Shown: positions 1 to 53,858 of the stretch, piece after piece | Layout of the letters: each line of letters starts with the position of its first letter | How positions within the stretch are numbered: the stretch's first letter is position 1 | IMG/VR virus record: IMGVR_UViG_2911013136_000002 | DNA: 64,000 nt | Reading direction: 5' to 3' (one strand) | Origin: an uncultured virus (IMG/VR IMGVR_UViG_2911013136_000002) | Lineage: Duplodnaviria > Heunggongvirae > Uroviricota > Caudoviricetes | Position numbers and translations under genes: made by a program | The notes under the pieces: generated by a model | What the model was told of the DNA's origin: nothing | What the model saw: the letters and a program-made list of their open reading frames with translations, nothing else | Databases searched by the model: none

Positions 1-1410
1 TTAATAGAATTCCACATCAGTAATTACAATGAGAGGTTTCCCTGTTTTGTATCGGTCTGGCCGTGTTGGAGGCTTCGGAATCGCTTTGAAATGAATCCTT
101 CTAATGAACCGTGAGATAAACTCTCTTTTTTCCTCTTGTGTAAGATGTTCGAATGTTGCGTTAAAAGCGAAAACGATGTTTTTTAATTGCTCTGGATCTA
201 CCTTTATCTCGTCCTTAAATTCGTCAAGTTTTTTCTTGAGTTGTTCATAAGCTTCCCTTGTTTCGCACATACGTTGTTCAAATTCCTCATCGCTGATTAA
301 ATCAGCAGCCCAAGCACGTTGATATTTTTCCCTTTTCCTTTCAATTTGCTTCAGCTGTTCAAGATAAAAAGCTTTCTCGTCTTTTTCCTCCTCAGGTGGT
401 TCTATAGGCTTGATCTCCACGTTTTTCATGTATTCCTTCAAAGCCTCTAAAAATCGCTGTTCACCAATTGTGAAAACCTTCTTACCTTCTTTCCAGCAAG
501 CTTGGCATCGGTAAACTGCACTTTGATATTCAGAGCCGTCTTTTCTTTTTCGGATATAGCGATTGACAGAAAGAGGGCGTCCGCAAGAAGGGCAGATAAG
601 AACTCCTTGGAAAAGGTACGTACTTTTCACATCTCTTCTGTGATGCACTGCTCGATCATCTAATATCTGTTGAAGTTTTAGAAACTCCTCTTTACTTATT
701 ATGCCTTCATGCGTATTTTCAAAAATTTTATCGTTCCATCTTGTTGCTCCATAGAGAGCAGGATTTCGTAAAATGCGTAAAACGGTATTCGCTCTCCATT
801 CTCGATCATTATTAACGAGATTTAAATAATTGGCAATCCGGTTTAATGACCATCCATTTTTAACTTTCTCGATCATGTCTAACACAACGATAGATTTTTC
901 ATTCTTTACTAACTTTGCATCTTTTGTCAAATCGAACCCGTAAGGGATGTTTCCGACACGTTCTCCCTCAGATACTTTTTGTTCTAACGCCATCTTAACC
1001 CGTTCTGAAAGGTTCTCTGATTCCCACTGCGCGAGTAGGGCGACAATACCCATAAACATTCTTCCATTTGCTGTTGTTGTGTCGTACATTTCTGTCGCAG
1101 ATTTGAATGCGCATCCATGATCCTGAAGAAATTTTAAAAGTTTGTGTAGGTCAATAACGGAACGCGTCAAGCGATCGAGTCGATAAACCAAGAGTGTTTT
1201 AATTTGTCCACCTTTAATGTGTTCCAGCAAAAGTTGTAATTTTGGTCGGTTTGTATCTCTTCCTGATATACCTTCTTCAATATAAAATCGGTAGTCTGTC
1301 CATCCTTGTGCTTTGCAATATGCTGTTAGTCGCTCTTTTTGTGCATCGATGGAATAACCTTCTAGCGCTTGTTCTTGTTTACTTACACGAATATAAATAC
1401 CTACAGTCAT
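1..1410 (-). CDS. Large serine recombinase (phage integrase)
   Basis: N-terminal YIRVS catalytic motif, VYRLDRLTR, recombinase domain, Zn ribbon CPSC...CQAC and a coiled coil. Confidence 0.95.
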   Translation of the reverse strand: MTVGIYIRVSKQEQALEGYSIDAQKERLTAYCKAQGWTDYRFYIEEGISGRDTNRPKLQLLLEHIKGGQIKTLLVYRLDRLTRSVIDLHKLLKFLQDHGCAFKSATEMYDTTTANGRMFMGIVALLAQWESENLSERVKMALEQKVSEGERVGNIPYGFDLTKDAKLVKNEKSIVVLDMIEKVKNGWSLNRIANYLNLVNNDREWRANTVLRILRNPALYGATRWNDKIFENTHEGIISKEEFLKLQQILDDRAVHHRRDVKSTYLFQGVLICPSCGRPLSVNRYIRKRKDGSEYQSAVYRCQACWKEGKKVFTIGEQRFLEALKEYMKNVEIKPIEPPEEEKDEKAFYLEQLKQIERKREKYQRAWAADLISDEEFEQRMCETREAYEQLKKKLDEFKDEIKVDPEQLKNIVFAFNATFEHLTQEEKREFISRFIRRIHFKAIPKPPTRPDRYKTGKPLIVITDVEFY

Positions 1411-1487
1411 GAACGCTCTCTCCTTTCTTTGTAAAAATAGGGCGAGAGGTAACTCACCCTTGAGATTAAATTTCTAGCGCTAGAAAT

Positions 1488-2147
1488 TTAATAAATTTTC
1501 ACAGCTTGTACAACTTTCCCGATAATCTTAACTTCGTCTTTCGTGATGTCATATATTTGTGGCTGGTAAGACGGATCGTTACTCATTGGAATAAGAGTGA
1601 TGATATTCTTGTTTATCGATACTTTTTTTACTGTGGCTTCATAGCCGTTTACTAACACAACGGCGATTGAACCGTTTTCCACTTCGTTGGTTCTCTCCAC
1701 AAGAACATAAGAACCATCTGGAAACTCTAAATTCATGCTGTTTCCTTTTACCCTTAAATAAAAATATTCCTTGTACTTATTAAGAAATGAAGAAAGGATT
1801 GGCATATATCCCTCGATATTTTGAGCAGCTAGTATAGGTTGTCCAGCAGCGATTGTTCCGACAATAGGAAGGTTTACAATGTTTGAGAAATCATTCTCTA
1901 CCACTTCATATATGTTTACTTCATTATCCTTTAATCCCAGAATTTCATCTAATGAAACATTAAAAAAATCGGCTATATAGCGAACTGAATCGATTCTTGG
2001 CTCTTCTCTATCATTTTCCCATTTAGAAATCATCCCTTTATTGAAATTTGTTCCATATTTTGTATTGAGAGCTTTTGCCAATCCTTCTTGTGTTAAATTC
2101 CTTGATTTTCTTAATGTTTTTAGTTTTTTACCAAACGAATACGCCAT
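1488..2147 (-). CDS. CI/LexA-like repressor (XRE HTH + S24 peptidase)
   Basis: HTH N-terminus; AAG cleavage site, GNSM catalytic Ser, TVKK Lys. RBS precedes the ATG at 2147. Confidence 0.92.
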   Translation of the reverse strand: MAYSFGKKLKTLRKSRNLTQEGLAKALNTKYGTNFNKGMISKWENDREEPRIDSVRYIADFFNVSLDEILGLKDNEVNIYEVVENDFSNIVNLPIVGTIAAGQPILAAQNIEGYMPILSSFLNKYKEYFYLRVKGNSMNLEFPDGSYVLVERTNEVENGSIAVVLVNGYEATVKKVSINKNIITLIPMSNDPSYQPQIYDITKDEVKIIGKVVQAVKIY

Positions 2148-2180
2148 TTTATTCACCTTCTTTCAATTATTTTTATGCAC

Positions 2181-2330
2181 CTTTCGATTATGTTTAGATA
2201 CATCTAAACAAATTATACCATATCGGTTTCGATACCGCCATATTTTTTATAAAAAATTTTTAATAAAGTAGTTGATTTCGAAACTCATAGATGATATATT
2301 TTAATCAGAGTTAAGTTTCGATTACGAAAC
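2181..2330. promoter_or_regulatory. Immunity region: divergent promoters and GTTTCG-N4-CGAAAC operators
   Basis: Palindrome gtttcgattacgaaac at 2315-2330, second copy at 2569-2584 in the cro 3' end. Rightward promoter ttgatt-N17-tatatt at 2272-2300. Confidence 0.65.
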
Positions 2331-2346
2331 AAGAGGAGGGAACAGC

Positions 2347-2601
2347 GTGGATGAAGTAAAAAGACGTCATGCTCCTTATACGAAGTTAAAGGCATACTTA
2401 AATGAAATTGGTTGGACACAAGCTGATTTGGCTAAATTACTCAATAAATCAAGATACGCGATTAATCAAAATTTAAACGGAACCGGGGGAGACTTTTCTT
2501 TGAGTGAGGTTCGCTTAATTTGCATGACTCTAGGTATTAGTGCAGACGAGTTTTTTATTGAACCTCAAGTTTCGAAAACGAAACAAGAAAACGCGTCATA
2601 A
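2347..2601 (+). CDS. Cro-like XRE HTH regulator
   Basis: TQADLAKLL HTH; divergent from CI; strong RBS. Confidence 0.85.
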   Translation: MDEVKRRHAPYTKLKAYLNEIGWTQADLAKLLNKSRYAINQNLNGTGGDFSLSEVRLICMTLGISADEFFIEPQVSKTKQENAS

Positions 2602-2622
2602 GTAACAGAGAGGAGAGGAGTA

Positions 2623-2811
2623 ATGATAGCAACTCAAAGCAATCGACCTGCTATTAGTAATGAAACCATGAAAGAAATGACGAAATTCTTCATGAAAATA
2701 TCCATTCCTCGCATTTTGGCTGCACTGGAACGCGGAGAGTTGGTTTTGGAAAACGGAAATCTGGTGCGAGCAAAGGAGGTGAACGAAAACGAAACTGCCC
2801 AGTGTGGATGA
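2623..2811 (+). CDS. Hypothetical early phage protein
   Basis: RBS gaggag; position in the early operon. Confidence 0.6.
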   Translation: MIATQSNRPAISNETMKEMTKFFMKISIPRILAALERGELVLENGNLVRAKEVNENETAQCG

Positions 2812-2900
2812 GTTCTATATTGACAAAATGAAATCTGAATTCGCCCTCTAAAGCTTCTTTTTAGAAAGAAACTTGGACAGGCATGGAGAGGAGAGAAGCG

Positions 2901-3659
2901 ATGAATCAATTACAGATTTTTAATCATCCGATGTTTGGGGATGTTCGGTTCGTCGAGATTAACAACAACCCGCACGCTGTTGGCAATGATGTTGCAAAAG
3001 TATTGGGGTATAGCCGACCACATGAAGCAATTTCAAACCACTGCAAGGGGGCGGTAACTTACCGCATCCTTACTAACGGCGGAGAACAAACGGTGAAAGT
3101 TATCCCAGAAAGAGATATATACCGATTAATAGTCAAAGCGGCCGATCAAAGCAAAAACCCAGAAATCAGACAGAAGGCTGAAGAATTTGAAAAGTGGATA
3201 TTTGAAGTAGTCCTTCCAACAATCAGAAAAACGGGCGGCTATGTTGCTAACGATGACTTGTTCATCCAAACCTACTTGCCTTTCGCTGATGAACAGACAC
3301 AAATGTTATTCCGCGGTATTCTTCAAACCGTCCGCAAGCAGAACGAACAGATAGCTGTCATGAAACCAAAAGCGGATTACTTTGACGCCTTGGTTGATCG
3401 GAATCTTTTGACGAATTTCCGGGACACTGCAAAAGAACTGAAAGTCAAGGAGCGGTTCTTCATCAATTGGCTTCTGCAAAACAAATTTGTTTATCGGGAT
3501 CAGAAAGGGAAACTCAACCCTTATGCGCCGTATGTGCCGGAATTATTTGAATTGAAGGAGTTTGCTCGAAACGGAAAAGCGGACGTTCAGACATTGATTA
3601 CGCCGAAAGGGAGAGAGACATTCCGGCTTCTGTTGCAAAAGGAGGGACTGGCATCATGA
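2901..3659 (+). CDS. Phage antirepressor (BRO-N + KilAC/ANT)
   Basis: FNHPMFGDVR...DVAKVLGY BRO-N motif, WIFEVVLPTIRKTGGY, KPKADYFD...ITPKG. Confidence 0.9.
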   Translation: MNQLQIFNHPMFGDVRFVEINNNPHAVGNDVAKVLGYSRPHEAISNHCKGAVTYRILTNGGEQTVKVIPERDIYRLIVKAADQSKNPEIRQKAEEFEKWIFEVVLPTIRKTGGYVANDDLFIQTYLPFADEQTQMLFRGILQTVRKQNEQIAVMKPKADYFDALVDRNLLTNFRDTAKELKVKERFFINWLLQNKFVYRDQKGKLNPYAPYVPELFELKEFARNGKADVQTLITPKGRETFRLLLQKEGLAS

Positions 3660-3934
3660 ACGTCCTCCCAGGTGATATGCAACGTGCTGCCAAACTGCTC
3701 GATTGCTGCGACTATTGCCTTGCCCGTGCTCGTGTGGCTCAGTTCGGGCGCGACTTGGACGAGGCGGAGAAATGGGTGAAGGAATTCCTTCGCTGTAAAC
3801 GCGATTGGGACGAGCTTATCAAACGGAAAGAGGAGCATGATCAATTAGTGCAGCTCGTCGAGATATTGAAGGAGCGCGGCGTGGATATTGCGGTCATTAG
3901 TTCCATCAAATTGAGAAAGGGGAATGAACAATGA
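3656..3934 (+). CDS. Hypothetical phage protein
   Basis: ATGA overlap with the upstream gene; RBS. Confidence 0.65.
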   Translation: MNVLPGDMQRAAKLLDCCDYCLARARVAQFGRDLDEAEKWVKEFLRCKRDWDELIKRKEEHDQLVQLVEILKERGVDIAVISSIKLRKGNEQ

Positions 3935-4131
3935 GTGTTTGTTTCACTGCAAGCCGACTAATGAAAGTTTCAGAGGTTCGTAGATGGTGCAAGGAAATGA
4001 GAGAAAATCCAGCTCTCCTTATGGCTACGGAGTTAAAAGCGAAAGAGGAACTTTACAAGCGCTTTTTACAAAAAGAAAAAACGGCCAGCACTTCCAACAC
4101 TAGCCGTCTAGCGATGCCTACCATGCAGTAA
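3931..4131 (+). CDS. Hypothetical phage protein (homologue of frameshifted gene 53068-53228)
   Basis: ASRLMK.SE.R motif shared with prophage 2. Confidence 0.7.
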   Translation: MSVCFTASRLMKVSEVRRWCKEMRENPALLMATELKAKEELYKRFLQKEKTASTSNTSRLAMPTMQ

Positions 4132-4164
4132 TTTCATTCTACCATATTCAAATCTTGATAACAA

Positions 4165-4262
4165 GACAGGCTAGTGCCTGTCGTCATGGCTGGGAGTAAA
4201 CAGGGTGCCCATCCTCACCTATCACGTTTACTCCTAGCTGTGACGATGTGCACTAGCACATC
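4165..4262 (+). ncRNA. Putative structured RNA element (long stem or two alternative hairpins)
   Basis: gctagtgc/gcactagc and gtcgtcatggctgggagtaa/ttactcctagctgtgacgat pair with only G-U wobbles. Covarying homologue at 53302-53398. Confidence 0.6.
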
Positions 4263-4326
4263 CATCACATTACTAATCCATACGCAAGGAGGCACATTAA
4301 ATATCTATGCGAAAGGTGGGAGAGAA

Positions 4327-4710
4327 GTGACACGGGAGGAGAAAAGACTCATCCGGTTGCAGATCGCCAGGCTCCTCGATCAGTGCCAGGGCTGCCAGTT
4401 TCGTTCAGCAACTAACGCCAGTATTCACGTTTGCTCTAGCTGCCCGATCGGACAGCGGATGCAGGAGCTGGGGAAGAAATTGGGTGGGCAGCCGAAAGTG
4501 GCAGAGAAAAAGCCAGCACAAAAGCAAAAGCAGAAAAAGAAAACACTTGTGATGCGGCGCTGGACGAAGGAGGAAGAGGAATTCATCCTCATGAACCAGC
4601 ACCATATGACAAAAATGCAGCTGGCTGAAAAGCTCGGTCGGACCTACTTTTCTGTTCGACAAAAGCTCACAAAACTCAATAGAAAAAGGGGGCGAATCCA
4701 TGCAAGTTGA
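4327..4710 (+). CDS. Zinc-finger + Myb-like HTH phage protein
   Basis: CxxC...CxxCPIG and RWTKEEE motifs; GTG start with RBS; homologue at 53511. Confidence 0.75.
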   Translation: MTREEKRLIRLQIARLLDQCQGCQFRSATNASIHVCSSCPIGQRMQELGKKLGGQPKVAEKKPAQKQKQKKKTLVMRRWTKEEEEFILMNQHHMTKMQLAEKLGRTYFSVRQKLTKLNRKRGRIHAS

Positions 4711-4891
4711 AAATTCGATGACTCGTCCGGTTCGGCTTAAAAGCCCTCATTGGGGAATTGACGCTTTCAACGACGAGATCCTTTACGGCGATGTCATCTA
4801 TGAGTTTCCAGACGGGGAGATCGTTCTTGAAGAAAACATTCATCAGTATCTCATTCAAGTGTTAGGCGCTACACGCAAAATCGCTGAATAA
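4700..4891 (+). CDS. YqaI-like phage protein
   Basis: VENxM...GID.F.DEI..GD motif; lies upstream of yqaJ. Confidence 0.6.
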   Translation: MQVENSMTRPVRLKSPHWGIDAFNDEILYGDVIYEFPDGEIVLEENIHQYLIQVLGATRKIAE

Positions 4892-4988
4892 AAAACGCCT
4901 CACTGGGGGGTGAGACGTTTCAGGGATGAAGGGGGCTTTCCCTTGAGGTAACTATCTTCATCATAAAGGAATCTCCACCAAAAATCAA

Positions 4989-5933
4989 ATGGAGGGGAGA
5001 AGCTTGGAAGCTGTTGTTCTCACAAACACAAGTGAAATGAACCATGAAGAATGGCTGCAGGCTCGTCGGAAAGGGATTGGTGGTTCGGATATTGCGGCAA
5101 TCGTGGGCCTAAACAAATATAAAAGTCCTATGCAAGTTTATCTTGATAAGATCGGTGAACTGCCGGAAGAAGAAGCCGGGGAAGCAGCATATTGGGGCAC
5201 GGTGCTTGAAGAAGTGGTGGCCAAAGAATTCAGCAAAAGAACGGGCCTGAAAGTGAAAAGAAGAAATGCCATCTTGCGACATAAAAAATATCCGTACTTC
5301 TTGGCAAATGTGGATCGGTTGATTGTAGGCCGGAAAGAAGGACTTGAATGCAAAACGGCCAGTGAATATTTGAAGGATCAATGGAATGAAGAAAGTGTTC
5401 CAGATGCTTATTTTGTCCAATGTCAATGGTATATGGCCATAACGGGCTTTCAGAAGTGGCACTTGGCCGTTTTAATCGGTGGAAACAAGTTCAGAATGTT
5501 TGAGATCGAACGGGATGATGAACTGATTGCCATTCTTGAACGGAAAGCCTATGAGTTTTGGAACAATCATGTGATCCCTAAAGTTCCTCCGGCCTTCGAT
5601 GGATCCCAAGCATCAAGTGATCTATTGGCCGCCATGTATCCTGAACACGTTGAAGAAAGCATTGATTTGCCGGGATACTTTGCCGAAAAGTTGAAAAGAC
5701 GGGATGAACTAAAGGCTATGATTGATGAATTGACGGAAGAAAAGAAGGCCATCGAAAACGAGATCAAAAGCTATATGGGTGAAAAGAAATATGGCTTCGT
5801 GGCTGGGCGGAAGATCACTTGGACGCGTTACACTGTTGAAAAATTCGATAAAGATGCCCTGAAAAGAGATCACCCTGATATCTATGCAAAGTACGTCACC
5901 GAAGGACGAAAATCGCAATTCGTGGTCAAATAG
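4989..5933 (+). CDS. YqaJ-like lambda-exonuclease family protein
   Basis: EWLQARRKGIGGSD, ANVDR, LECKT and QCQWYM motifs. Confidence 0.93.
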   Translation: MEGRSLEAVVLTNTSEMNHEEWLQARRKGIGGSDIAAIVGLNKYKSPMQVYLDKIGELPEEEAGEAAYWGTVLEEVVAKEFSKRTGLKVKRRNAILRHKKYPYFLANVDRLIVGRKEGLECKTASEYLKDQWNEESVPDAYFVQCQWYMAITGFQKWHLAVLIGGNKFRMFEIERDDELIAILERKAYEFWNNHVIPKVPPAFDGSQASSDLLAAMYPEHVEESIDLPGYFAEKLKRRDELKAMIDELTEEKKAIENEIKSYMGEKKYGFVAGRKITWTRYTVEKFDKDALKRDHPDIYAKYVTEGRKSQFVVK

Positions 5934-5944
5934 GGGGAATTGCT

Positions 5945-6121
5945 TTGGCAAAATGCAAAGGTTGCGGTGCTGAAATCGTTTGGGTAAAAACGCCGAATGG
6001 AAAAGCGATGCCGTGTGATCCTGAAAAGAAAGTGCTTGTTTCGGATGAAGGCGAAATTGTTTCGGGCAGGGTTCCACATTGGGCCACCTGCCCGGCTGCA
6101 AATCAATTTAAAAAACAGTAA
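5945..6121 (+). CDS. Small Zn-binding phage protein (not in ORF track)
   Basis: TTG start after ggggga; MAKCKGCGAEIVW...PHWATCP, 58 aa. Confidence 0.7.
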   Translation: MAKCKGCGAEIVWVKTPNGKAMPCDPEKKVLVSDEGEIVSGRVPHWATCPAANQFKKQ

Positions 6122-6138
6122 TGGAAAGGGGAAAAATC

Positions 6139-7047
6139 ATGGCAACTAAACAAGCGGATAAGTTGAAAACAGAAATTGCAAAGCAAGAACAAAAACAGCT
6201 TGCCCAACAAGGAGAAAACAAACCAAAAACCCTGATGGATCTGATGATGGAATACAAGCCACAATTTGAAATGGCGCTGCCAAAACACTTGAACGCTGAT
6301 CGCTTGATCCGTTTGGCTGTCACGGAATTTAGAAGAAATCCGGCACTTCGTGATTGCACACCTGAAAGTTTACTTGGTGCTGTGATGCAAGCAGCCCAAG
6401 TAGGCCTTGAACCTGATGCCTTTGGCTCTTGTTACTTGGTGCCGTTTAACAACAAGAAGAAAGGGCCGGACGGAAAAGAATATTGGGTGAAAGAAGTTCA
6501 GCTTGTTATTGGATATAAGGGCCTGATCGAATTGGTGAGAAGATCCGGCCAAGTGACAAGTATTGTGGCAAATGAAGTCTATGAAAATGATGAATTCGAG
6601 TTTGAATATGGCCTGAATGAAAAGCTTTACCACAAACCAAAGCTTGACGGGGAACGCGGAAACCTGAAATGCTTCTATGCTTATGCTCGTTTCAAAGATG
6701 GCGGTTATGCCTTCACGGTCATGAGTGTGGAACAAATCAATCAGATCCGAGATAAGTTCAGTAAGTCAAGAAACAAGAACGGTGAAATTTACGGCCCTTG
6801 GAAAGATCACTATGAATCTATGGCCAAGAAAACGGTCATCAAACAGCTTATCAAATATATGCCAATCAGCGTAGAAATTCAGAATCATATTGCAGCTGAT
6901 GAAACAGTTCATTCGAGTTTCAAGGAAGAACCAAAACGCGTTGAGTACATTGACGCAGAGGCATTTGAGGTTCCTGCAGAGGAAGAACAGCCGAAAGAAG
7001 AGGAAAAACCAATTGCTTTCGAACAGGAGAGCTTTGACATCGAATGA
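6139..7047 (+). CDS. recT: RecT single-strand annealing recombinase
   Basis: SLLGAVMQAAQVGLEP, QLVIGYKGLIEL, PWKDHYESMAKKTVIK. Confidence 0.93.
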   Translation: MATKQADKLKTEIAKQEQKQLAQQGENKPKTLMDLMMEYKPQFEMALPKHLNADRLIRLAVTEFRRNPALRDCTPESLLGAVMQAAQVGLEPDAFGSCYLVPFNNKKKGPDGKEYWVKEVQLVIGYKGLIELVRRSGQVTSIVANEVYENDEFEFEYGLNEKLYHKPKLDGERGNLKCFYAYARFKDGGYAFTVMSVEQINQIRDKFSKSRNKNGEIYGPWKDHYESMAKKTVIKQLIKYMPISVEIQNHIAADETVHSSFKEEPKRVEYIDAEAFEVPAEEEQPKEEEKPIAFEQESFDIE

Positions 7048-7205
7048 TGGAATACCGAATTGTTATCCCACATTGTTTCCGTTGGATGGCTGCTGGCAAC
7101 AAGAAACTCTACATCGAGTACATCAAGGGATATATCAAGCGCAGCCATCCCGGCTTGAAGCCGGTTCGTGTAGAAGGTCGATATGTGATTTGTGTAAAGA
7201 AATAG
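7047..7205 (+). CDS. Small hypothetical phage protein (not in ORF track)
   Basis: MEYRIVIPHCFRW..., 52 aa, translationally coupled to recT. Confidence 0.55.
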   Translation: MEYRIVIPHCFRWMAAGNKKLYIEYIKGYIKRSHPGLKPVRVEGRYVICVKK

Positions 7206-7223
7206 GAAAGCCGAGGTGATACG

Positions 7224-8126
7224 ATGCCCGAAAGTTTTTACTTCCCTGTTTATTCAGGTTTACTGACAGCGCAGCATAGAGAAAGGATTGGATCAGCAAT
7301 TTGGGAGTTTTTGTGGCTCATTTCTAAAGTCACAAAGGAAATAGAGGAAGAAGGTGAGACTTGGGGCATCGTACTCGGCGGCAAACCTGTGAAACTTGCA
7401 GAAATCGCTGCGGAACTTGGTGGAAGCGAACGGACCGTGAAAAGAAATATTGCTCGACTAAAAGATGAAGGTTACATCGAAACGGTTCGTGCTCCGTACG
7501 GTGAGATTTACAAAGTTAGGAAATCAAAGAAATTTATCCATAAAAACAGAAGTGCCAAAAATGGCACATCTCTCGATGAGAGAGAGGACAAAAATGGCCT
7601 ATCTCATGATGAGAGAAGTGCCAAATATGGCATTTCTGAACAAAGAGAAGTGCCATTTTTGTCCGAGAGAAGTGCCACATCTGGCCTATCTAATAAAGAT
7701 ATAAAAGATATAAAAGAAATAATTAATAAAAAAATTAATAAAGAGGATGATGAATATACTGTGGACAAAATTTTAGACCTTCTTCAAAAAAGCAAGATTT
7801 TGGAGAAAGAAGATATTACAGAATTTCTCCGTGAAGACATACAAGACGTTATCGATAATTTTGGCTTTACTAATCCAGAAGAAATGATTGTAGAAGCCAT
7901 TAAAGATGCAGCACGAGGAAACGGAAAGACATGGAAGTTTGTCTACAACAAATTGAACGCATGGAGAAAGCAGGGGATTAAAACCATTGAAGATTTGGAT
8001 AAGGGGGATACTAATGGCACGGTTCACAAGCATCGCAGAGGTGTTAGCCGATCTGCAAAAGAAGGCAAGTCTTATGAGCAAATCCTCCGAGAAGCCGAAG
8101 CAGCACGAAAAGCCTGGGGAGGATGA
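7224..8126 (+). CDS. Phage replication initiator (wHTH + DnaD/DnaB_2-like domain)
   Basis: HTH AEIAAELGGSERTVKR; C-terminal WKFVYNKLNAWRKQGIKT; internal iterons. Confidence 0.85.
   Translation: MPESFYFPVYSGLLTAQHRERIGSAIWEFLWLISKVTKEIEEEGETWGIVLGGKPVKLAEIAAELGGSERTVKRNIARLKDEGYIETVRAPYGEIYKVRKSKKFIHKNRSAKNGTSLDEREDKNGLSHDERSAKYGISEQREVPFLSERSATSGLSNKDIKDIKEIINKKINKEDDEYTVDKILDLLQKSKILEKEDITEFLREDIQDVIDNFGFTNPEEMIVEAIKDAARGNGKTWKFVYNKLNAWRKQGIKTIEDLDKGDTNGTVHKHRRGVSRSAKEGKSYEQILREAEAARKAWGG
7548..7745. repeat. Iterons and AT-rich tract, probable replication origin of prophage 1
   Basis: Repeated agaagtgcca and aaaaatggc..atct units followed by an A-rich run inside the initiator gene. Confidence 0.7.
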
Positions 8127-8910
8127 ATACGAATGTTCCCAATGTAAAGATACGGAATTCATTTTCTATAAGGATGAGGAAGGTTATGAATTTGCAAAGC
8201 CGTGTGAATGCCGGGAAAGAAAAGCATGGAAACGTCGGTTCAAGCAAGCGCTCATTCCGGATGAGTTTATCCATGCGAATTTTGAAAGTTTCAAGCGATC
8301 GACGCAGTATCAGCAAGATATGTATGATGCGACCATTAGCTACCTAAACGAATTCGCTGTTATCAAGCAAGAGGATGGCACAACAAAGAAAATTTTGTCT
8401 GACAAAAATTTGGGTTTCATTGCCAAAGTTGGCGAACAGCGCCTAAGAGAATTGCCAATCGAGGAACGGTCCGTTGTTAAACAACAACATAACAATTTTG
8501 GGATCGGGAAGACGCATTTGCAGATCGCTCTTGCAAAACGCCTTATCAAAGATGGATTCAATGTTCTAGTGGTTTCTGATGTTTCGTTCATGGACGAGCT
8601 CACTCAAGCTAAAAGGATGAACGATGAGGGAGAAACGCTCAATCGACTCCTGCAAGGTGCCATTGATGCAGATGTTTTAGTTTGGGATGACATAGGCAAG
8701 GCAAAATGGTCGGAAGCGAAAGAAGCGTTGTACTACCAAATTATCAACGAACGTTATCGGAAGCAAAGGCCAATCGTCTTTAATAGCAACGAAGATCGCG
8801 GAACGTTAAGCGAAAAAATCGGATATGCTGCAGCAAGTAGATTGATAGGACAATGTGGTCCATATCTCCACGAAGTTGAGGGGGAAGACTTCAGATTAAA
8901 GGGGGCGTAA
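8014..8910 (+). CDS. DnaC/IstB-like helicase loader ATPase
   Basis: CSQC...CEC Zn motif, Walker A GIGKTHL, Walker B VLVWDDIG. Confidence 0.88.
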   Translation: MARFTSIAEVLADLQKKASLMSKSSEKPKQHEKPGEDEYECSQCKDTEFIFYKDEEGYEFAKPCECRERKAWKRRFKQALIPDEFIHANFESFKRSTQYQQDMYDATISYLNEFAVIKQEDGTTKKILSDKNLGFIAKVGEQRLRELPIEERSVVKQQHNNFGIGKTHLQIALAKRLIKDGFNVLVVSDVSFMDELTQAKRMNDEGETLNRLLQGAIDADVLVWDDIGKAKWSEAKEALYYQIINERYRKQRPIVFNSNEDRGTLSEKIGYAAASRLIGQCGPYLHEVEGEDFRLKGA

Positions 8911-8915
8911 GAACA

Positions 8916-9104
8916 ATGACATGCGTGAAATGTAACGGGACGGGTCAGCTATACACAAAAGTAGCAAACGGCGCGTGCTTGGTGACGGCTTGCGATTGCG
9001 AACATGCCGAACGTGCCAGACACGAATTCGAGCAGGAAATGATCGAATTCAGAAGACGGCTTCGTGAAGCAAAAGAACGATTGAAAAAGGAGGTATGTTG
9101 CTGA
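8916..9104 (+). CDS. Small Zn-finger phage protein
   Basis: CVKCNGTG...CDC. Confidence 0.6.
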   Translation: MTCVKCNGTGQLYTKVANGACLVTACDCEHAERARHEFEQEMIEFRRRLREAKERLKKEVCC

Positions 9105-9271
9105 TGGGCATCCTCTATGAAAAGGTTCAATACACCCAGGAACTCAAACGTCAAATGATGATTCGTCAACTCATCGATATGGGAATCACAGAGGATGAAG
9201 GTAAATCTATTTACGACTTGGCCTACTACACGTTGCGATTTGTATTGGCAACCGAGAAAGCAAAACAATGA
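9104..9271 (+). CDS. FbpA-like small basic protein (not in ORF track)
   Basis: RBS ggaggt; MIRQLIDMGITEDEGKSIYDL motif. Confidence 0.55.
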   Translation: MGILYEKVQYTQELKRQMMIRQLIDMGITEDEGKSIYDLAYYTLRFVLATEKAKQ

Positions 9272-9391
9272 TGCCTATCTCTCTTCAAATTTCGACAAAT
9301 TTCGAGCATTTTTTGTGAGAATGTAAAATAATTATTGGAACGAGAAAAAAACGCTGCACAAGGCGAATATAGGCGTTTGATAGGTGGTGAG

Positions 9392-9568
9392 ATGACTGTG
9401 ATAGAAATATTAATCGTTTTAGTGGCGCTCACATTATTATCGATCATTGCGTTGATATTTTTTGGTGCAGTCATCATTTTTGAATCACTGCCTCCTCTAT
9501 TGAAATGGATATTCGGAATTGTTATCGTACTTGCAATGTTCTACGGATGGTACATGTTAAATAACTAA
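9392..9568 (+). CDS. Small two-TM membrane protein
   Basis: Two hydrophobic stretches; RBS aggtggtga. Confidence 0.55.
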   Translation: MTVIEILIVLVALTLLSIIALIFFGAVIIFESLPPLLKWIFGIVIVLAMFYGWYMLNN

Positions 9569-9584
9569 ATGAGGTGAAGACACA

Positions 9585-10031
9585 ATGATTAGCTTCACTG
9601 TCTATGGCGAGCCTGTCGCACAGGGCCGACCTCGAGCAACCATGATTGACGGTCATATCCGGATGTATGACCCGAAAAAATCGAGAAATTTCAAGGAATA
9701 CGTGAAATTAGTAGCTTCTGAACATCGTCCTGAAAAATTACTCGAGGGACCTATATCTCTTGTTGTTAAGGTGTACAAGCCTACCTTGAAAAGTTTCAGC
9801 AAAAAGAAAAAGGCATCGGCCGAAGCTGGTCAGCTGCGTCCGACAAGTAAACCGGATGTAGATAACTATGCGAAATCCATAAAGGATGCACTCAAAAACG
9901 TCATTTGGAAGGATGACAGCCAGGTGGTAGACTTACATATTTCCAAATGGTACAGCGAGACACCAAGGGTGGAAATCACTATTGTTCCACTAGAGGAGCA
10001 GCAACAAACTGCTCCCGAAAGGAGGGAATAA
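9585..10031 (+). CDS. rusA: RusA Holliday junction resolvase
   Basis: PVAQGRPR, KPDVDNYAKSIKDAL, WKDDSQVV. Confidence 0.92.
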   Translation: MISFTVYGEPVAQGRPRATMIDGHIRMYDPKKSRNFKEYVKLVASEHRPEKLLEGPISLVVKVYKPTLKSFSKKKKASAEAGQLRPTSKPDVDNYAKSIKDALKNVIWKDDSQVVDLHISKWYSETPRVEITIVPLEEQQQTAPERRE

Positions 10032-10379
10032 ATGAACCAGCTGACGATTTTCGATTTTGTTGAGGATGAGAAGGTCGATGATAAAACATTGAGAAGGATA
10101 CAGAGCGTTTTTCCCGGCTGGGAAGTGCTTGGATATATGAAAGACTGGGAATGGGGAACAAGCGACGATTACGCAGCGATCATTCGGTGTGACGACGTAT
10201 ACAAGTGGGTCCGTGTAGAGTTGTATCACGATGGCCGTTCCCACGCTGGATATACAGAGCGTACGGATTTTGAGCAGTATTGGTTCGATCTGTACGAGAA
10301 AAAGGGAAAACACTGGGTATGGCGATCGCTTGAGGATAGGGAGCGAGTGTTTGAGATTGCAAGGCAAAACATGAGATGA
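10032..10379 (+). CDS. Hypothetical phage protein
   Basis: RBS ggaggg; NQLTIFDF motif resembling a clamp-binding motif. Confidence 0.65.
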   Translation: MNQLTIFDFVEDEKVDDKTLRRIQSVFPGWEVLGYMKDWEWGTSDDYAAIIRCDDVYKWVRVELYHDGRSHAGYTERTDFEQYWFDLYEKKGKHWVWRSLEDRERVFEIARQNMR

Positions 10380-10396
10380 GCAGGATGACAGCCTTG

Positions 10397-10732
10397 TCAT
10401 TTATGAATAAAAACCCTAGTACCAATTGGAACTCTAGATGATAATTCTAGAACATCATGATTAAACATTCTAATACATCCATGTGAGACATTCTTACCGA
10501 TTGAAGCTGGGTTATTTGTTCCGTGTATACCATAATGAGGTCTTGACAATCCCATCCAAAGCACTCCAAATGGTCCGCCGGGATTACGTTGTTTATTGAT
10601 AATCGTGTATGTCCCGGAAGGTGTTGGTGTCAATATTTTTCCAACTGCAATTGGGTGAGCTTTTATAAGCCTATTTCCATCAAAAAGTTTTAATTGATGT
10701 TGTGATGTAGATACGTCAATCCATTTCACCAT
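10397..10732 (-). CDS. L,D-transpeptidase (YkuD family), moron
   Basis: PIAVGK..TPTP.G, YGIHGTN and SHGCIRM catalytic motifs. ATG at 10732 with RBS. Confidence 0.9.
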
Positions 10733-10756
10733 GAAGAACAACTCCATTTTTTTGAA

Positions 10757-10784
10757 TATTGTATGAAGTAACCCAGGCACTTGT
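10757..10784 (-). promoter_or_regulatory. Sigma-K-like promoter for the YkuD-family gene
   Basis: Minus strand ACA-N16-CATACAATA. Confidence 0.55.
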
Positions 10785-10955
10785 TAATTAATAGGAATTG
10801 ATTGAACAGTTAAAAAGAAAAGAAAGCAAAACTGCTTAATGAACAGTTCGTTTCGTCTGTGACACATATATTATTCATTAATGTGTAAATCGTCTTTTCC
10901 TTCTTAGTTATTATACAAAATGCCCCACTAAATAAAAGTAGGGCATTCGTGGGGA

Positions 10956-11150
10956 TTAACAGCAATGAGTAGGGTATCCAGGATCAACAACCACGTTTCT
11001 TGTAATAGGAGCAACAATATGTCTAGGAACATTGACGATATTGTGACGATTAATGTGTACAACTGGATGGATAAAAGGGACTACACGAGGAATGAAACAG
11101 TCTCGCACCGCAAATCTAGGTGGACATATAACTGGTCTAGGACAAAACAT
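10956..11150 (-). CDS. CotD-like small spore coat protein
   Basis: Cys/Pro/His/Val-rich (PVICPP...VVPFIHP...); strong RBS ggaggtga; terminator near 10921-10950. Confidence 0.6.
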   Translation of the reverse strand: MFCPRPVICPPRFAVRDCFIPRVVPFIHPVVHINRHNIVNVPRHIVAPITRNVVVDPGYPTHCC

Positions 11151-11262
11151 GGAAAATCACCTCCTATAAATGTTTATAAACATTAAATGTACTAGTGGGA
11201 CTTTTTGAAACGGACAGATATCACAAGGTATACAAAAAAGATAAATTGAGTTGTAAAAGAAG

Positions 11263-11784
11263 GTGAAAAACTTGTTGCAAGGAGTTTGCGTGGATACAGG
11301 CGTATCCACCGTTCTTGAGCAGGGAAAAAAGTATTTTCTCTTCTCAAACGGTCCCGATCATTATTACGTTTCAAAGCTTCCAAAGACAAGTGCCCATCAA
11401 GGATGTTTTCATAAATCATTATTTCAAATCGTTCAAGAAGACGAATGGCCACCGGAGCCAGCTGTGGACAATGTTCCGGTATTGGACAGTTCAAAAATCT
11501 ATGCGGCAAAGCTCATTTGGAGAAAACGAGGATACCAGCAGGTTAAGTTAGGAATGTATTATTTGCAGCTAGCAAGAACACATGCGTATGTGTTTCGTGA
11601 TCGGCAATTAGAAAAGTGCATCGGCTGCTTTCCGTTGCACTGGTTTGAGGACTTTAGAGAAGTGAATGCGGAAGAAAATGAAACAAACGAGGCCGTTTTT
11701 AAAACGGAAACGCTTGAAAGTGAAACAAAAGAGGAAATACCTGAAAACTTCGAGCAAATGAGTATCTTCGATTTTGTTGAGTGA
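11263..11784 (+). CDS. Hypothetical phage protein
   Basis: 173-aa ORF ending in EQMSIFDF. Confidence 0.7.
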   Translation: MKNLLQGVCVDTGVSTVLEQGKKYFLFSNGPDHYYVSKLPKTSAHQGCFHKSLFQIVQEDEWPPEPAVDNVPVLDSSKIYAAKLIWRKRGYQQVKLGMYYLQLARTHAYVFRDRQLEKCIGCFPLHWFEDFREVNAEENETNEAVFKTETLESETKEEIPENFEQMSIFDFVE

Positions 11785-12040
11785 GGAGGAGCGGAATGAT
11801 CTACATCTTGCGCCATCCAAAAACACATAAGGAAGTCAGAACGAAGCGAAAATGGAAAGTAAGACAGTACCAGTTGCAAGGATATAAGCTTGTGAATCAA
11901 TATGATCCGACGGCAACGCAGAATTGCAAATTATAAGCTCCGGACCTAAATAAAAAAGACCGGACTTCTCCCGGTCAAAAGAGAAAAGAATGAAGGTAAA
12001 ATATCGTTCCTCGACCATATTATACACGGGAGGGGTCCGA

Positions 12041-12502
12041 GTGGGCAAACGGTTTTATCAACTGTCTTTTTTGCGTGACACGGACGGAGAAAAAACAAAA
12101 GAAGCAGTAGAGGCAGCACTTGAAAAATATCGCATGTATATGTTGACGGTTCCGGACGAATTCCTGCCACGCGTGACGCAAACGTACTCTCTCGTGCCGC
12201 CAAGCAACACGAATGCTTTTCATTCATCTACAGAAAGCGCGGCAATCAAAAAAGTAGACTTCGAACGAGAACGCGATGAGTACATGGAGAGAATACGCCG
12301 CGCGGTGAATCGATTGAACAAGATGGAGCGGGAATTGATTATTAAGCGATATATGACATTGGAAGAGCCTTATGATTATGAGGTATACAATGAAATGGGA
12401 ATCAGTGAATCAAGGTTTTACCGTATCCGTGAGAAGGCGTTTTATAAATTGGCTTTTGCTTTACGGATTGAAGTTTACAAAGAAGAAGAGGCACCTGTTT
12501 AA
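12041..12502 (+). CDS. arpU: ArpU/RinA-family late transcriptional activator
   Basis: PRVTQTYSLVPPS, DYEVYNEMGISESRFYRIREKAFYKLAFAL; GTG start after an RBS. Confidence 0.9.
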   Translation: MGKRFYQLSFLRDTDGEKTKEAVEAALEKYRMYMLTVPDEFLPRVTQTYSLVPPSNTNAFHSSTESAAIKKVDFERERDEYMERIRRAVNRLNKMERELIIKRYMTLEEPYDYEVYNEMGISESRFYRIREKAFYKLAFALRIEVYKEEEAPV

Positions 12503-12670
12503 GGTGCTTCATTATTTATAACAATATATAGTATTGTTTTTAATTAAAAACACAAGATATGGTATTATATAAGATTTTTTATGTTTTTGCAATAGTTTAT
12601 TATTGATAAAATACCCAATTATTACTATTATTTATTTATAGAAGTAAGGAACGGGACAGGGGGGGATAAT

Positions 12671-13306
12671 ATGAATATTCTAGACGCTGCTAAATATTTC
12701 ATTGGGTTAAGTAAGCCAGGAACAAAATATGAAATAACCCCTAAGAAGTTACAAAAAATTCTTTTCTACGCGCAAGCTTGGTATTTGGTCAAAAAAAGAA
12801 AACCATTGTTTCCAAATAGTACGTTCCAAGCTTGGTCGCACGGACCTGTGAATTACTTAGTTTATGATTGGTACAGGGAGTATGGTTATCTACCAATAAC
12901 GGAAACAAATACAGAACAACTTTCTTTAGAAGATGGTGAGAAACAGCATCTAGACACCATTTGGGAAATTTACGGTTGTTATAATGCTGATCAATTGGAA
13001 GCTTTAACGCATGAAGAAGATCCATGGAAAAAGGCTAGAAAGGGTCTTCCAGATGATGCTCCTTCAAATGAAATAATAACAGTAGAATCGATGATTGTTT
13101 ATTACAGTGAGGTTTTGAAGAAAGTAAAAAATAATGAGTGGCACTGTATAACTGTTAATCCACAACCGAGATTAGAGTTATTGCTGGATAAAGAGGAGCC
13201 TACTGCTAACCCTTTGCTGAGATTTCTTGGTGCTTGGCAAGGGGATGATTTTGAAGAATGCCTAAAAGACGTGTATAAGAACAGAATAGAGGCTAAATTC
13301 AACTAA
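12671..13306 (+). CDS. Panacea (DUF4065/SocA-like) antitoxin with C-terminal extension
   Basis: ITPKKLQKILFYAQ, FQAWSHGPV, LEALTHEEDPW. Confidence 0.85.
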   Translation: MNILDAAKYFIGLSKPGTKYEITPKKLQKILFYAQAWYLVKKRKPLFPNSTFQAWSHGPVNYLVYDWYREYGYLPITETNTEQLSLEDGEKQHLDTIWEIYGCYNADQLEALTHEEDPWKKARKGLPDDAPSNEIITVESMIVYYSEVLKKVKNNEWHCITVNPQPRLELLLDKEEPTANPLLRFLGAWQGDDFEECLKDVYKNRIEAKFN

Positions 13307-13307
13307 G

Positions 13308-13793
13308 ATGTATTTGCTAGATACCAATCATTGCAGTAGGATCCTAGATAACGATCCAGTAATGGCTCAGAAACTAAGAGAAACAGATCATAAACACATT
13401 AAAACCTGCTTTATTGTCGAGTCAGAGCTATATTTTATGGCGTATAGGTCAGAGAAAACTACAGAAAATCTCTTTCAAGTTAGTGAGTTTCTCAGTAAAA
13501 TTGAAATTATAAGATGCGATCCAAGTGTTGCAAGATACTATGGTGAATTAAAAGCAAAAGTGTTAGAAAAATTCGGGCCAAAGGAAAAGAAGAAAAAAAG
13601 AAAATACACTCTAAAAGATGCGGGAATCAGCGAGAACGATCTTTGGATAGCATCAGTTGCACTTGCGCATAATTTAACTGTAATAAGTATAGACAGCGAT
13701 TTTCAAAGGATCAAAGAGGCGGAACCAAACCTAAAAGTTGAAAGCTGGTTGACTGAACCTGTTGTAATTGAAGAAGTTGAGGTTACTGGATAG
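13308..13793 (+). CDS. vapC: PIN-domain (VapC) toxin
   Basis: YLLDTN, ESEL, NDLWIAS and SIDSDF acidic PIN residues. Confidence 0.88.
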   Translation: MYLLDTNHCSRILDNDPVMAQKLRETDHKHIKTCFIVESELYFMAYRSEKTTENLFQVSEFLSKIEIIRCDPSVARYYGELKAKVLEKFGPKEKKKKRKYTLKDAGISENDLWIASVALAHNLTVISIDSDFQRIKEAEPNLKVESWLTEPVVIEEVEVTG

Positions 13794-13824
13794 ATCACGC
13801 CATCTTTTTGGCGTGTTTATTTTT

Positions 13825-13986
13825 TGACAGAAAACTGAAAGAAAAATGAAGGAAAAATGACGGAAAGATGACAGATTATTTTGTTTCGGACATGCTATGA
13901 TGATAACGTGAGATATTTTGAAGCAGGGTGAAACTTCCCAACAAAAGGCTTTTTTACCTAGCGTCACTCCGATCGGGGTGGCGTTT
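13825..13986 (+). promoter_or_regulatory. Late promoter A: 11-bp-period activator repeats, extended -10, downstream terminator hairpin
   Basis: tgacagaaaac/tgaaagaaaaa/tgaaggaaaaa/tgacggaaaga/tgacaga; tgctatgat; gcgtcactccgatcggggtggcgtttt at 13961. Confidence 0.65.
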
Positions 13987-14050
13987 TATTATGCTATCAA
14001 TAGGTATTCTAACAAAAACATGTGCTAAATCAGAAAGCGAGGTGACAGGC

Positions 14051-14221
14051 ATGGAACGATACGATGAAGAAGAAGAAAAAGCGAAAGAGGAATATGAGAA
14101 ACATAAATGCAAAACGTGTGTATGGGCAAAATGGCAAGCTTCTTTTATTGTTTCGTGCCTGTTTCCTCGGTGCGTGAAGGACAGTTCTCGATTCATGGTG
14201 GACAAGATATCCATGAGGTGA
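14051..14221 (+). CDS. Small Cys-rich protein (paralogue of 16010-16171)
   Basis: HKCKTCVWAKWQ...SCLFPRCV; RBS gaggtga. Confidence 0.65.
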   Translation: MERYDEEEEKAKEEYEKHKCKTCVWAKWQASFIVSCLFPRCVKDSSRFMVDKISMR

Positions 14222-14226
14222 GGAAA

Positions 14227-14378
14227 ATGTACAGCTACGAGCTCTACAATGAGATGGGAATGAGCGAGAGCAAATATTATCGCATAAAATCACGCGACTT
14301 TTATAAGCTTGCTTTTGCTCTCCGGATCGAGGTGTATAAACAATGAATTTTGTGCAGCCGATTCGTGATCCAGAGAGA
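14227..14378 (+). pseudogene. Relic: 3' end of a second arpU and first codons of the adjacent tyrosine recombinase
   Basis: KYYRIKSRDFYKLAFALRIEVYKQ* then MNFVQPIRDPE, nearly identical to 58918-59070. Confidence 0.85.
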
Positions 14379-52888: not shown

Positions 52889-53228
52889 ATGATGAAACTG
52901 CCAAATTTAGCGGAGATGACGGATATTGAAGCGATTCATTAGTACACCAGCGAGTTTTTGCGACTCTCGTGTGAAAGGCAGCTGAATAGTGAATACGGCA
53001 AAGCGCTTTTAGAGTGGAAAAAACAATTAAATGCACGCCTGGAGAAGTCGAAAAAGGAGTGGTGGTAATGTACGCAGTACTTTCGGCAAGCCGTCTATGA
53101 AAGCATCGGAAATTCGGAAAATCTGTGCGGAACTACGAAGCAATCCAACACTGTTGACGGCGTTAGAGTTAGCAGCGAAAGAAAAACTTTATCAGCAATT
53201 CGTACTAAAAGAAAAAGCAGTAAGCTGA
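52889..53228 (+). pseudogene. Two damaged small genes: 52889-53068 (internal TAG) and 53068-53228 (1-bp deletion)
   Basis: IEAIH*YTSEF; ASRL/MKASE out of frame relative to homologue 3931-4131. Confidence 0.6.
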
Positions 53229-53301
53229 TCGCTCACTGCCATTGTTAAAACCAGCCCGAAATTTAAGTTCATTGTATCATCATTTGCAGAACAAGGCAAG
53301 T

Positions 53302-53398
53302 TCGGCAAGCTAATGCTTGTCGACGGCAGTGCAAGCCGGCGGGTGTGTCCCCAGCCTGCCAGCATGCTTGCACTCCGGTCGATGTGCATTAGCACATT
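53302..53398 (+). ncRNA. Putative structured RNA, homologue of 4165-4262
   Basis: gctaatgc/gcattagc and agtgcaagc/gcttgcact stems. Confidence 0.6.
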
Positions 53399-53510: not shown

Positions 53511-53858
53511 GTGACCAGGGAGGAGAAAAAACAGATTCGCTTGCAAATTACTAAGCTGCTGGATACGCATTGTTCTTCATGCAGAGAGCGTAATGAAAGC
53601 AGAAACAGCTTATGTCTAACGACTTGTCCCATCGGCAAGCAAATGCGTCAGTTGTCATCCATGCTAGAGCAGGACCATATTTCAGAAGGAACAAAGAGAA
53701 CAGGAAAATGGACCAACGAAGAAGAGCTTTACTTATGGCACCATCAACACATTTTGACGATTAATCAGCTGGCAGAAGAATTGAATCGAGATAAGAAATC
53801 TATCTACAACAAGCTTTGGCGGTTGAAAAAGAAAGGCGGTATCCAACACGTTAGCTAG
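53511..53858 (+). CDS. Zinc-finger + Myb-like HTH phage protein
   Basis: TREEKKQIRLQI, CSSC...CLTTCPIG, WTNEEE. Confidence 0.75.
   Translation: MTREEKKQIRLQITKLLDTHCSSCRERNESRNSLCLTTCPIGKQMRQLSSMLEQDHISEGTKRTGKWTNEEELYLWHHQHILTINQLAEELNRDKKSIYNKLWRLKKKGGIQHVS

Follow-up and report, generated by a model that had tools for sequence, protein, structure and literature searches.

A conserved, apparently two-state RNA element coupled to a predicted antisense RNA gene in the early operons of temperate Bacillales phages

The 64,000-nucleotide IMG/VR record IMGVR_UViG_2911013136_000002, assigned to an uncultured virus of the Caudoviricetes and referred to here in its whole length as the window, comprises two Geobacillus-type prophages whose early regions are read rightward. 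In both, the spacer of 195-280 nt that separates a small gene of family phrog_14590 from a zinc-finger/helix-turn-helix (Zn-finger/HTH) regulator gene of family phrog_3910 contains a structured element of 98 or 95 nt. Our comparative analysis supports a functional, strand-specific structure at this place in the rightward early-operon messenger RNA (mRNA) of temperate Bacillales phages. Judged from its relatives, the element is a real, conserved and strand-specific two-state RNA, coupled to a predicted gene for an antisense small RNA (sRNA), and constitutes a new RNA family; it has the look of a new phage RNA control element.

Covariation, strand specificity and two competing folds

The two copies and their parts are as follows:

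4165..4262, plus strand: structured RNA element, copy 1 (prophage 1), 98 nt, drawn either as hairpin 1 (hp1), a central hairpin and hairpin 2 (hp2) (Form A) or as a single long rod (Form B)
4165..4182, plus strand: hp1 of copy 1, GACAGGC-UAGU-GCCUGUC, with a 3' half and a loop that also take part in the rod's lower stem
4183..4244, plus strand: central hairpin of copy 1, common to both folds, free in sequence with its pairing kept
4208..4215, plus strand: C-rich apical loop of copy 1 (CCCAUCCU)
4245..4262, plus strand: hp2 of copy 1, GAUGUGC-ACUA-GCACAUC, with a loop complementary to that of hp1
53304..53398, plus strand: structured RNA element, copy 2 (prophage 2), 95 nt, with hp1 at 53304-53321, hp2 at 53381-53398, loops TAAT/ATTA and a central sequence that differs from copy 1
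53345-53353, plus strand: apical loop of copy 2 (GUGUCCCCA)

The plus-strand RNA of copy 1 folds at -59.2 kcal/mol (z-score -8.69) and that of copy 2 at -54.0 kcal/mol (z-score -4.11), energies equalled by none of 200 dinucleotide shuffles in either case, and the minus-strand folds are weaker (z-scores -5.75 and -2.80, respectively). The original prediction, made from the letters of the window, had noticed an element of divergent sequence and common pairing ahead of the Zn-finger gene in both prophages, together with an alternative fold of two hairpins with complementary loops (TAGT/ACTA, or TAAT/ATTA in copy 2); the sequences are as it described them, and the alternative fold turned out to be conserved in relatives. 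It had also taken the mismatches in the prophage 1 stem to be all G-U, which holds almost, though not entirely: 6 of the 36 pairs in the copy 1 rod are G·U, but a C/U 1x1 mismatch is present as well.

Relatives were gathered by a protein-anchored search, by a pattern search of 3 and then 48 genomes, and with a covariance model, R1, built from 13 copies. Some 40 copies came to light, in phages and prophages from Geobacillus-type genomes and from other Bacillales. R1 matched 17 of 48 genomes of a related locus's family and 12 of 151 sampled genomes of its order, counts that include the genomes from which the model was built. Two sequenced phages, phiOH2 and Bacillus phage 1 (BV1), were matched as well, both in stretches left unannotated, and at least 5 true copies were recognized by R1 among 80 viral-contig loci fetched with a loose pattern. 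Within the window R1 matches the two copies only, copy 1 at 85.4 bits on the plus strand versus 34.8 bits on the minus strand and copy 2 at 68.7 bits (plus). Every copy is located in the early region of a prophage, with a single copy per phage and always at the same position in the early operon.

Applied to a plain MAFFT alignment of 13 copies, RNAalifold returned one rod of 28 pairs with 98.1% of the alignment cells paired. Compensatory double changes were seen at 16 of these pairs, as against 6.8 ± 1.7 in column shuffles (none of 500 reached 16) and at most 5 in slid controls, where the partners were moved by 1-3 columns. The central hairpin of the same alignment has compensatory changes at 13 of its 17 pairs. 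When 35 distinct copies were aligned by means of the model, 96.9% of cells were paired and 24 of the 28 pairs were compensated (184 cells), with a covariation score of 0.633 versus 0.253 in shuffles, a value that 0 of 500 shuffles attained, and no more than 0.117 in slid controls. The covariation of the outer helix that had been proposed from the window's two copies extends across homologues.

The structure is also bound to one strand. At the same sites R1 scores the plus strand about three times as high as the minus strand (e.g. 99.9 versus 33.8 bits, and 102.4 versus 27.2), and positions that depart from Watson-Crick pairing comprise 21 G·U and no A·C in hp1, and 13 G·U and no A·C in hp2. 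With the plus strand as RNA, 33 of 35 copies have a full 7-bp hp1; with the minus strand, 15 do. Furthermore, in every locus that has homologous flanking genes, the element is oriented in their sense. Together, this asymmetry and orientation point to selection acting on the early-operon transcript and not on duplex DNA.

Forms A and B, the latter a rod of 28-36 bp, share the central stem and compete for GCCUGUC and GAUGUGC, and the alignments lend support to both. On the side of the rod, the lower stem that is specific to it covaries (pairs 13-96, 14-95 and 15-94 in the 13-copy MAFFT alignment, and more in the 35-copy set), as does the loop-loop pairing within that stem (TAGT/ACTA, TAAT/ATTA, TCAT/ATGA, TGGT/ACCA, CTAGC/GTTAG). 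On the side of the flanking hairpins, changes in hp1 and hp2 are one-sided in the 13-copy set, always to G·U, and the 35-copy set contains the compensatory variants GGCAAGC/GCTTGCC, GATAGGC/GCCTATC, GATGCG/CGCATC, GATGGG/CCCATC and GATGGA/TCCATC. A tandem U·G/G·U in the rod stays wobble almost throughout, the U·G in 35 of 35 copies and the G·U in 32, with A-U in the other 3, which is what a second constraint, the need of each base to pair in hp1 or hp2 too, would predict. By constrained folding of the 35 copies, Form B minus Form A amounts to -0.8 ± 4.4 kcal/mol at 37 °C and -1.5 ± 3.1 kcal/mol at 60 °C; Form B is favoured in 18 copies at the lower temperature and in 20 at the higher, and in no copy do the two forms differ by more than a few kcal/mol. 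Since both folds are conserved and nearly isoenergetic, the element is predicted to be bistable. In 4 of 35 copies hp2 is absent, and AAAGGAGG, a Shine-Dalgarno sequence, directly follows the rod there.

Bistability invites the idea of a conformational switch or timer acting in cis, in which Form A would form first during transcription and a slow conversion to Form B, or one driven by a protein, by temperature or by another RNA, would alter translation, decay or transcription downstream. The near-equal energies in all 35 copies agree with it, no linkers separate the three helices of Form A, which would allow the forms to interconvert by branch migration, and the element usually lies 6-20 nt before the Shine-Dalgarno sequence of the next gene. 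Mutually exclusive folds, as expected of a riboswitch, are at hand; yet the only conserved unpaired positions are a C run and a short AUCA bulge, which do not resemble the core of a binding pocket, and neither fold pairs with the Shine-Dalgarno sequence or makes a terminator, there being no U tract. No plus-strand terminator was found between the element and about 12.5 kb for a switch to act upon, the four copies without hp2 are predicted to be rod-only, and the complementarity of the element to the predicted antisense sRNA has not co-evolved (see below). We therefore consider such a switch distinctly unlikely. Processive antitermination was likewise dismissed, as no notable plus-strand terminator-like site occurs from the element to about 12.5 kb.

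The leftward promoter and its predicted antisense RNA

A leftward promoter adjoins each copy, as the original prediction had stated, and an RNA gene can be drawn from it in both prophages:

4136..4164, minus strand: leftward promoter P_as of copy 1, TTGTTA-17-TGnTAGAAT, with the -35 TTGTTA at 4164-4159 and an extended -10 that ends at 4136
53271..53299, minus strand: leftward promoter P_as of copy 2, TTGCCT-17-TGnTACAAT, with a TG-extended -10
4070..4128, minus strand: predicted antisense sRNA of copy 1, about 59 nt, overlapping gene 3931-4131 at its 3' end; the terminator stem, 4109-4079, lies inside that gene and precedes a U run
53207..53263, minus strand: predicted antisense sRNA of copy 2, about 57 nt, with a terminator stem at 53240-53216 followed by a U run; the stem spans the end of gene 53031-53228

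The ends given for the sRNAs are predictions based on the positions of promoter and terminator. Approximately 25 nt downstream of the leftward promoter, the minus strand has a conserved intrinsic terminator, which the original prediction had missed, and that of copy 1 is among the best-scoring terminator-like sites in 1400-20000. The extended -10 is found at the same place in nearly all relatives, and an automatic rule requiring an extended -10, a hairpin and a U run accepted 30 of 36 distinct upstream regions; inspected by eye, the remaining 6 mostly had an interrupted U run or reached a contig end. Given this arrangement, an antisense sRNA of about 60 nt is probably transcribed separately from the leftward promoter; its predicted length ranges from 35 to 66 nt among relatives, and it would overlap the 3' end of whichever open reading frame (ORF) lies upstream.

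The comparison supports the view that the sRNA gene and the hairpin stay joined in a single module of some 200 nt. None of the flanking gene families is universal. Among 37 loci, 21 had a phrog_14590-like upstream gene and 13 had the Zn-finger gene, and two YqaI-like families were represented in 12 and 8; the conserved unit would therefore be the RNA module itself. In these loci, upstream ORFs of unrelated families end in ...K-K/E-T/A-A-S(-A) (window 4079-4131 and 53216-53228). The shared C-termini can be explained by their last codons being the complement of the sRNA terminator and U run, such that the RNA gene would dictate the C-termini of proteins that are otherwise unrelated. The overlapped ORFs encode hydrophilic products of 54-88 aa from several families. 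A type I toxin-antitoxin locus was rejected on these grounds, small hydrophobic peptides being what that would call for.

The sRNA and the element showed no general tendency to pair with each other. Over 30 pairs, the predicted antisense sRNA bound its cognate element at -30.06 kcal/mol and non-cognate elements at -30.14 kcal/mol; direct pairing as a general feature was rejected because cognate pairs did no better. A GGGCUGG/CCAGCCC match between sRNA and element was seen in the group of loci L050-L055 only.

An RNA of comparable placement is on record for Bacillus subtilis. The tabulated sRNAs of PMC2965217 (Table 2) include ncr1160, an uncharacterised 70-nt RNA opposite the yqa early genes of the skin prophage and, with 920 cDNAs, the most abundant predicted sRNA of that transcriptome. 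The same source lists ncr1159, a 50-nt, abundant and uncharacterised RNA at yqaO/yqaN of the skin prophage, which is likewise opposite yqa genes. Compared by description and not by sequence, ncr1160 resembles the predicted leftward sRNA in being on the strand opposite the early genes of a related prophage, but it lies between yqaI and yqaJ, unlike our sRNA, which by analogy would be placed upstream of yqaI. We regard ncr1160 as a likely analogue, and ncr1160 and ncr1159 together suggest that phages of this group generally encode leftward sRNAs within their early operons. The genes yqaG-K do not occur in the supplement of PMC11780869; that study used a phage-cured strain.

The position of the promoter also raises the question of whether the element acts as DNA. 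The palindromes hp1 and hp2 could be operators of a dimeric protein that controls the leftward promoter, or the inverted repeat could be a cruciform, a signal in single-stranded DNA or a small mobile palindromic insert. hp1 does abut or overlap the -35 of the leftward promoter, the ends of the element look like imperfect terminal inverted repeats, and Parageobacillus phage NIIg3.2 (OP341623.1; L001:1716-1735) carries what would be a precise 'empty site', GACAGGC-ACTA-GCACATC, in place of the element, with the sRNA gene intact. Against this stand the G·U excess and the threefold plus-strand advantage of R1 described above, the central stem, whose sequence varies freely while its pairs are kept, unlike a protein-binding site, and the constant early-operon position at one copy per phage. 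Moreover, no second junction like that of NIIg3.2 was found in 48 family genomes with up to 2 mismatches allowed. The loss in NIIg3.2 is precise, running from the hp1 loop to the hp2 loop, and we read it as a one-off deletion of the hairpin and not as the empty site of a mobile element. Taken together, a DNA-level role appears very improbable. Within it, a miniature mobile inverted-repeat element was set aside altogether, as the element occurs in no unrelated contexts and NIIg3.2 remains the single empty site, with none in the 48 genomes.

Possible roles in the early transcript

Our favoured explanation, put forward as a tentative one that falls short of probable, is that the module is an mRNA processing and stability insulator, by which the 'decision' genes on its upstream side would be uncoupled from the regulator, recombination and replication genes that follow. 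The early transcript would be cut by an endonuclease, for which RNase III is the obvious candidate, in the rod and/or in the sRNA:mRNA duplex just upstream. After the cut the flanks would refold, hp1 capping the 3' end of the upstream fragment against 3' exonucleases and hp2 capping the 5' end of the downstream fragment against RNase J1; in copies that lack hp2, a ribosome on the adjacent Shine-Dalgarno sequence could take over 5' protection. Such a model gives a reason for keeping both folds and for an sRNA target 5' of the rod. Of the three functions named in the original prediction, a switch, a processing site or an antisense-type regulator, the comparative data single out none.

Several features of the rod are in keeping with this insulator. 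It forms a near-continuous duplex of at least about two helical turns between cistrons, as a site for RNase III should, with 28 conserved pairs and 36 in copy 1. The four copies in which the Shine-Dalgarno sequence directly follows the rod were counted as support for a processing site. According to PMC11780869, the mapped RNase III duplexes of B. subtilis span 10-36 bp, with U-G wobble enriched in the distal box, and a hairpin at the 5' end of a cleavage product is described as protecting it from RNase J1.

A number of points weigh on the other side. The larger alignment of 35 copies was fitted to the model and is biased towards structure, which leaves the unfitted MAFFT result as the cleaner test, and the bistability derives from nearest-neighbour energies and comparative data. 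Of the two caps hp2 is the weaker part, a full 6-bp hp2 being present in 22 of 35 copies only. The rod is precisely missing from NIIg3.2, which kept the sRNA gene, so that it must be dispensable for a propagating phage. Public sequencing runs (at most 0.05 of sampled words) reach the upstream gene of a relative only, and the contigs assembled from 4 of the 9 matching runs are relatives that correspond to window 3835-4093 only and leave the element uncovered. Finally, an insulator neither needs nor explains the conserved C-rich loop.

That loop is a nearly constant feature of the family. In the apical region, 31 of 35 copies carry CCCC (composition-matched shuffles: mean 12.3, maximum 20) and all 35 carry CCC; the region is 42% C versus 24% in the rest of the element, and GGGG is never present. 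Its conservation implies that the loop has some other partner, which would be a protein or else a G-rich RNA, for instance Shine-Dalgarno sequences. The apical loops can pair with the consensus Shine-Dalgarno sequence at about -6 to -13 kcal/mol, and PMC2790875 describes a class of Firmicute sRNAs characterised by an unpaired UCCC or C-rich motif with which they bind Shine-Dalgarno sequences. All of this would suit a trans-acting sRNA, for which the early mRNA would release the central hairpin by processing, and the unpaired C-rich loop of the hairpin would block translation by pairing with G-rich Shine-Dalgarno regions of host or phage mRNAs, much as RsaE or RNAIII-type sRNAs with C-rich loops do. 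In arising from a longer transcript and not from a promoter of its own, such an sRNA would be like C4 of P1 or CI of P4. Neither copy is flanked by a plus-strand promoter or terminator, and any free RNA would therefore have to come from processing. No specific target emerged, however. The loop did not co-vary with the cognate downstream Shine-Dalgarno sequence in 31 loci (cognate -9.4 versus non-cognate -10.5 kcal/mol, permutation p = 0.9996; these remain from 34 key-distinct loci, 3 of which yielded no Shine-Dalgarno sequence), and a loop-target scan of both window strands gave no target common to the two prophages apart from the trivial self-antisense match. On balance a trans-acting role of this kind is unlikely, although it deserves to be kept in view.

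Processing and trans action might also be combined in one scheme, which we offer as a quite improbable one. The module would be a phage RNA control device of a class not described before, a self-resealing processing cassette: once the rod has been cut out of the early mRNA, the flanks would close up as protective hairpins, and the released hairpin, by way of its C-rich loop that resembles an anti-Shine-Dalgarno sequence, would act in trans on host or phage translation. The covarying loop pair (TAGT/ACTA, TAAT/ATTA, TCAT/ATGA or TGGT/ACCA) would serve as an 'address' particular to each phage, with the consequence that co-resident prophages, such as the two of the window, would stay insulated from each other.

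Genomic setting, known systems and significance

Behind a CI-like repressor gene and a Cro-like gene, each early region of the window carries an antirepressor gene, small ORFs, recombination genes (YqaJ/RecT) and replication genes (DnaD/DnaC-like). The genes that flank the two copies are the following:

3931..4131, plus strand: small gene upstream of copy 1 (phrog_14590, function unknown), whose last codons run into the sRNA terminator
4327..4710, plus strand: Zn-finger/HTH regulator gene downstream of copy 1 (phrog_3910)
53031..53228, plus strand: small gene upstream of copy 2 (phrog_14590)
53511..53858, plus strand: Zn-finger/HTH regulator gene downstream of copy 2 (Pfam zf-C2HCIx2C, phrog_3910)

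Some further observations concern the surroundings of the element. At 4307-4330 of the window there is a mini-ORF of 7 codons (MRKVGEK) whose TGA stop overlaps the GTG start of the Zn-finger gene, and the motif CTATGCGAAAGGAGG of this region is found again before various downstream genes in the relatives L069, L040, L041 and L065; it may be a conserved translation-initiation leader. In L039 (1603-1700, element strand) and the L050-L055 group, about 360 nt without an obvious gene lie between the element and the Zn-finger gene, opening with the common motif ..CCGAGCG.GAGCG.GCGACGATC..GAAAG.GGAGCCGCGCC. In L043 (1598-1700), as well as L056 and L048, a stretch of about 105 nt directly 3' of the element is closed by a 10-bp stem (CGTAAGGCGA...TCGCCTTACG) and contains a tRNA-like D-arm sequence (GGCGGAATAGGTAGACGC) and a T-arm-like hairpin (CAAGGTGCAAATCCTTG), with a fold z-score of -1.24 only. 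A tRNA or Rfam identity for this structured stretch was discarded after ARAGORN returned 0 genes and Rfam 0 matches. Farther along prophage 1, at 13960-13985 and 15895-15924 (plus strand), two terminator-like hairpins with a nearly identical stem (AGCGTCACTCCGATCGGGGTGGCGTT) stand about 1.9 kb apart and look like a repeated terminator module.

The element itself matches no family in Rfam 15: a cmscan of the whole window against all 4227 families gave no match at the gathering score, and at E<=10 the region 3950-4350 gave 5 chance-level matches to microRNAs (miRNAs) or sRNAs only, the best at 18.5 bits against a threshold of 49. Five related loci had no match at E<=0.1. The families thus compared include C4 antisense RNA, the antitoxin RNAs of type I systems, EAR/epsC and the riboswitches. 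A search of the literature, mostly at the level of search results, found no description of the element. Among the known systems with which we compared the module, OOP of phage lambda resembles the predicted sRNA in its anatomy. OOP is a short leftward RNA whose promoter is situated within the rightward early operon; it stops at an intrinsic terminator and covers the 3' end of the early gene upstream. The predicted sRNA of 35-66 nt matches it in each of these respects, with an opposite-strand early-operon promoter, shortness, an intrinsic terminator and the 3' overlap, but no relation by sequence or Rfam was found, the host clade is another one, and the overlapped gene here is not of one family. 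To our knowledge, lambda OOP has no adjoining bistable hairpin in the sense mRNA.

RNase III processing hairpins in early polycistronic mRNAs of phages are known from the R sites of T7 and from Bacillus phage SP82, the latter with a 5' stabiliser. In its predicted structure the rod resembles them, as a long imperfect duplex of 28-36 bp between cistrons of an early operon, with a length inside the 10-36 bp of mapped substrates. We know of no RNase III site described with two competing conserved flanking hairpins, a conserved C-rich apical loop or a coupled antisense RNA gene. Protective hairpins at product ends, the role proposed here for hp1 and hp2, are found in known processing systems, such as the stabilising hairpin of cggR-gapA in B. 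subtilis (PMC11780869). An unpaired C-rich motif in a hairpin loop is common to the element and to RsaE/RoxS and the RNAIII hairpins (PMC2790875). Unlike the RsaE/RoxS class, the element has no promoter or terminator of its own.

The immunity RNAs C4 of P1/P7 and CI of P4 lie on the same strand as their operon and are freed by processing, and their loops are specificity determinants that differ between related phages. The original prediction had likened the element to them. Its complementary hp1 and hp2 loops do differ between the two prophages (TAGT/ACTA versus TAAT/ATTA), but both lie inside the element, no downstream loop-complementary target sites were found in the window, and with neither an Rfam match nor a co-evolving loop target the proposed kinship could not be upheld. 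In hok/sok and the type I toxin-antitoxin loci of Bacillus, a bistable mRNA is combined with a small antisense RNA, which in Bacillus overlaps the 3' end. The module has in common with them a small, strongly promoted antisense RNA over an mRNA 3' end and alternative mRNA folds, but its overlapped ORFs are of several unrelated families and do not encode small hydrophobic peptides. The element is not a demonstrable member of the OOP, RNase III hairpin, C4/CI or hok/sok systems.

Temperate-phage control in Bacillus-type hosts is known mainly through repressors and arbitrium peptides, and control of the early operon at the level of RNA is almost unexplored. Comparative evidence for two competing folds is also rare outside riboswitches and attenuators. 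NIIg3.2 provides a ready-made natural mutant in which the rod is deleted, and in thermophilic Bacillaceae the module might find use as a compact genetic part that insulates or stabilises mRNAs. For the biology of these phages, the 200-nt module is an entry point to how they separate the fates of their 'decision' and replication genes, and it may bear on the role of the abundant, uncharacterised prophage sRNAs in B. subtilis transcriptomes.

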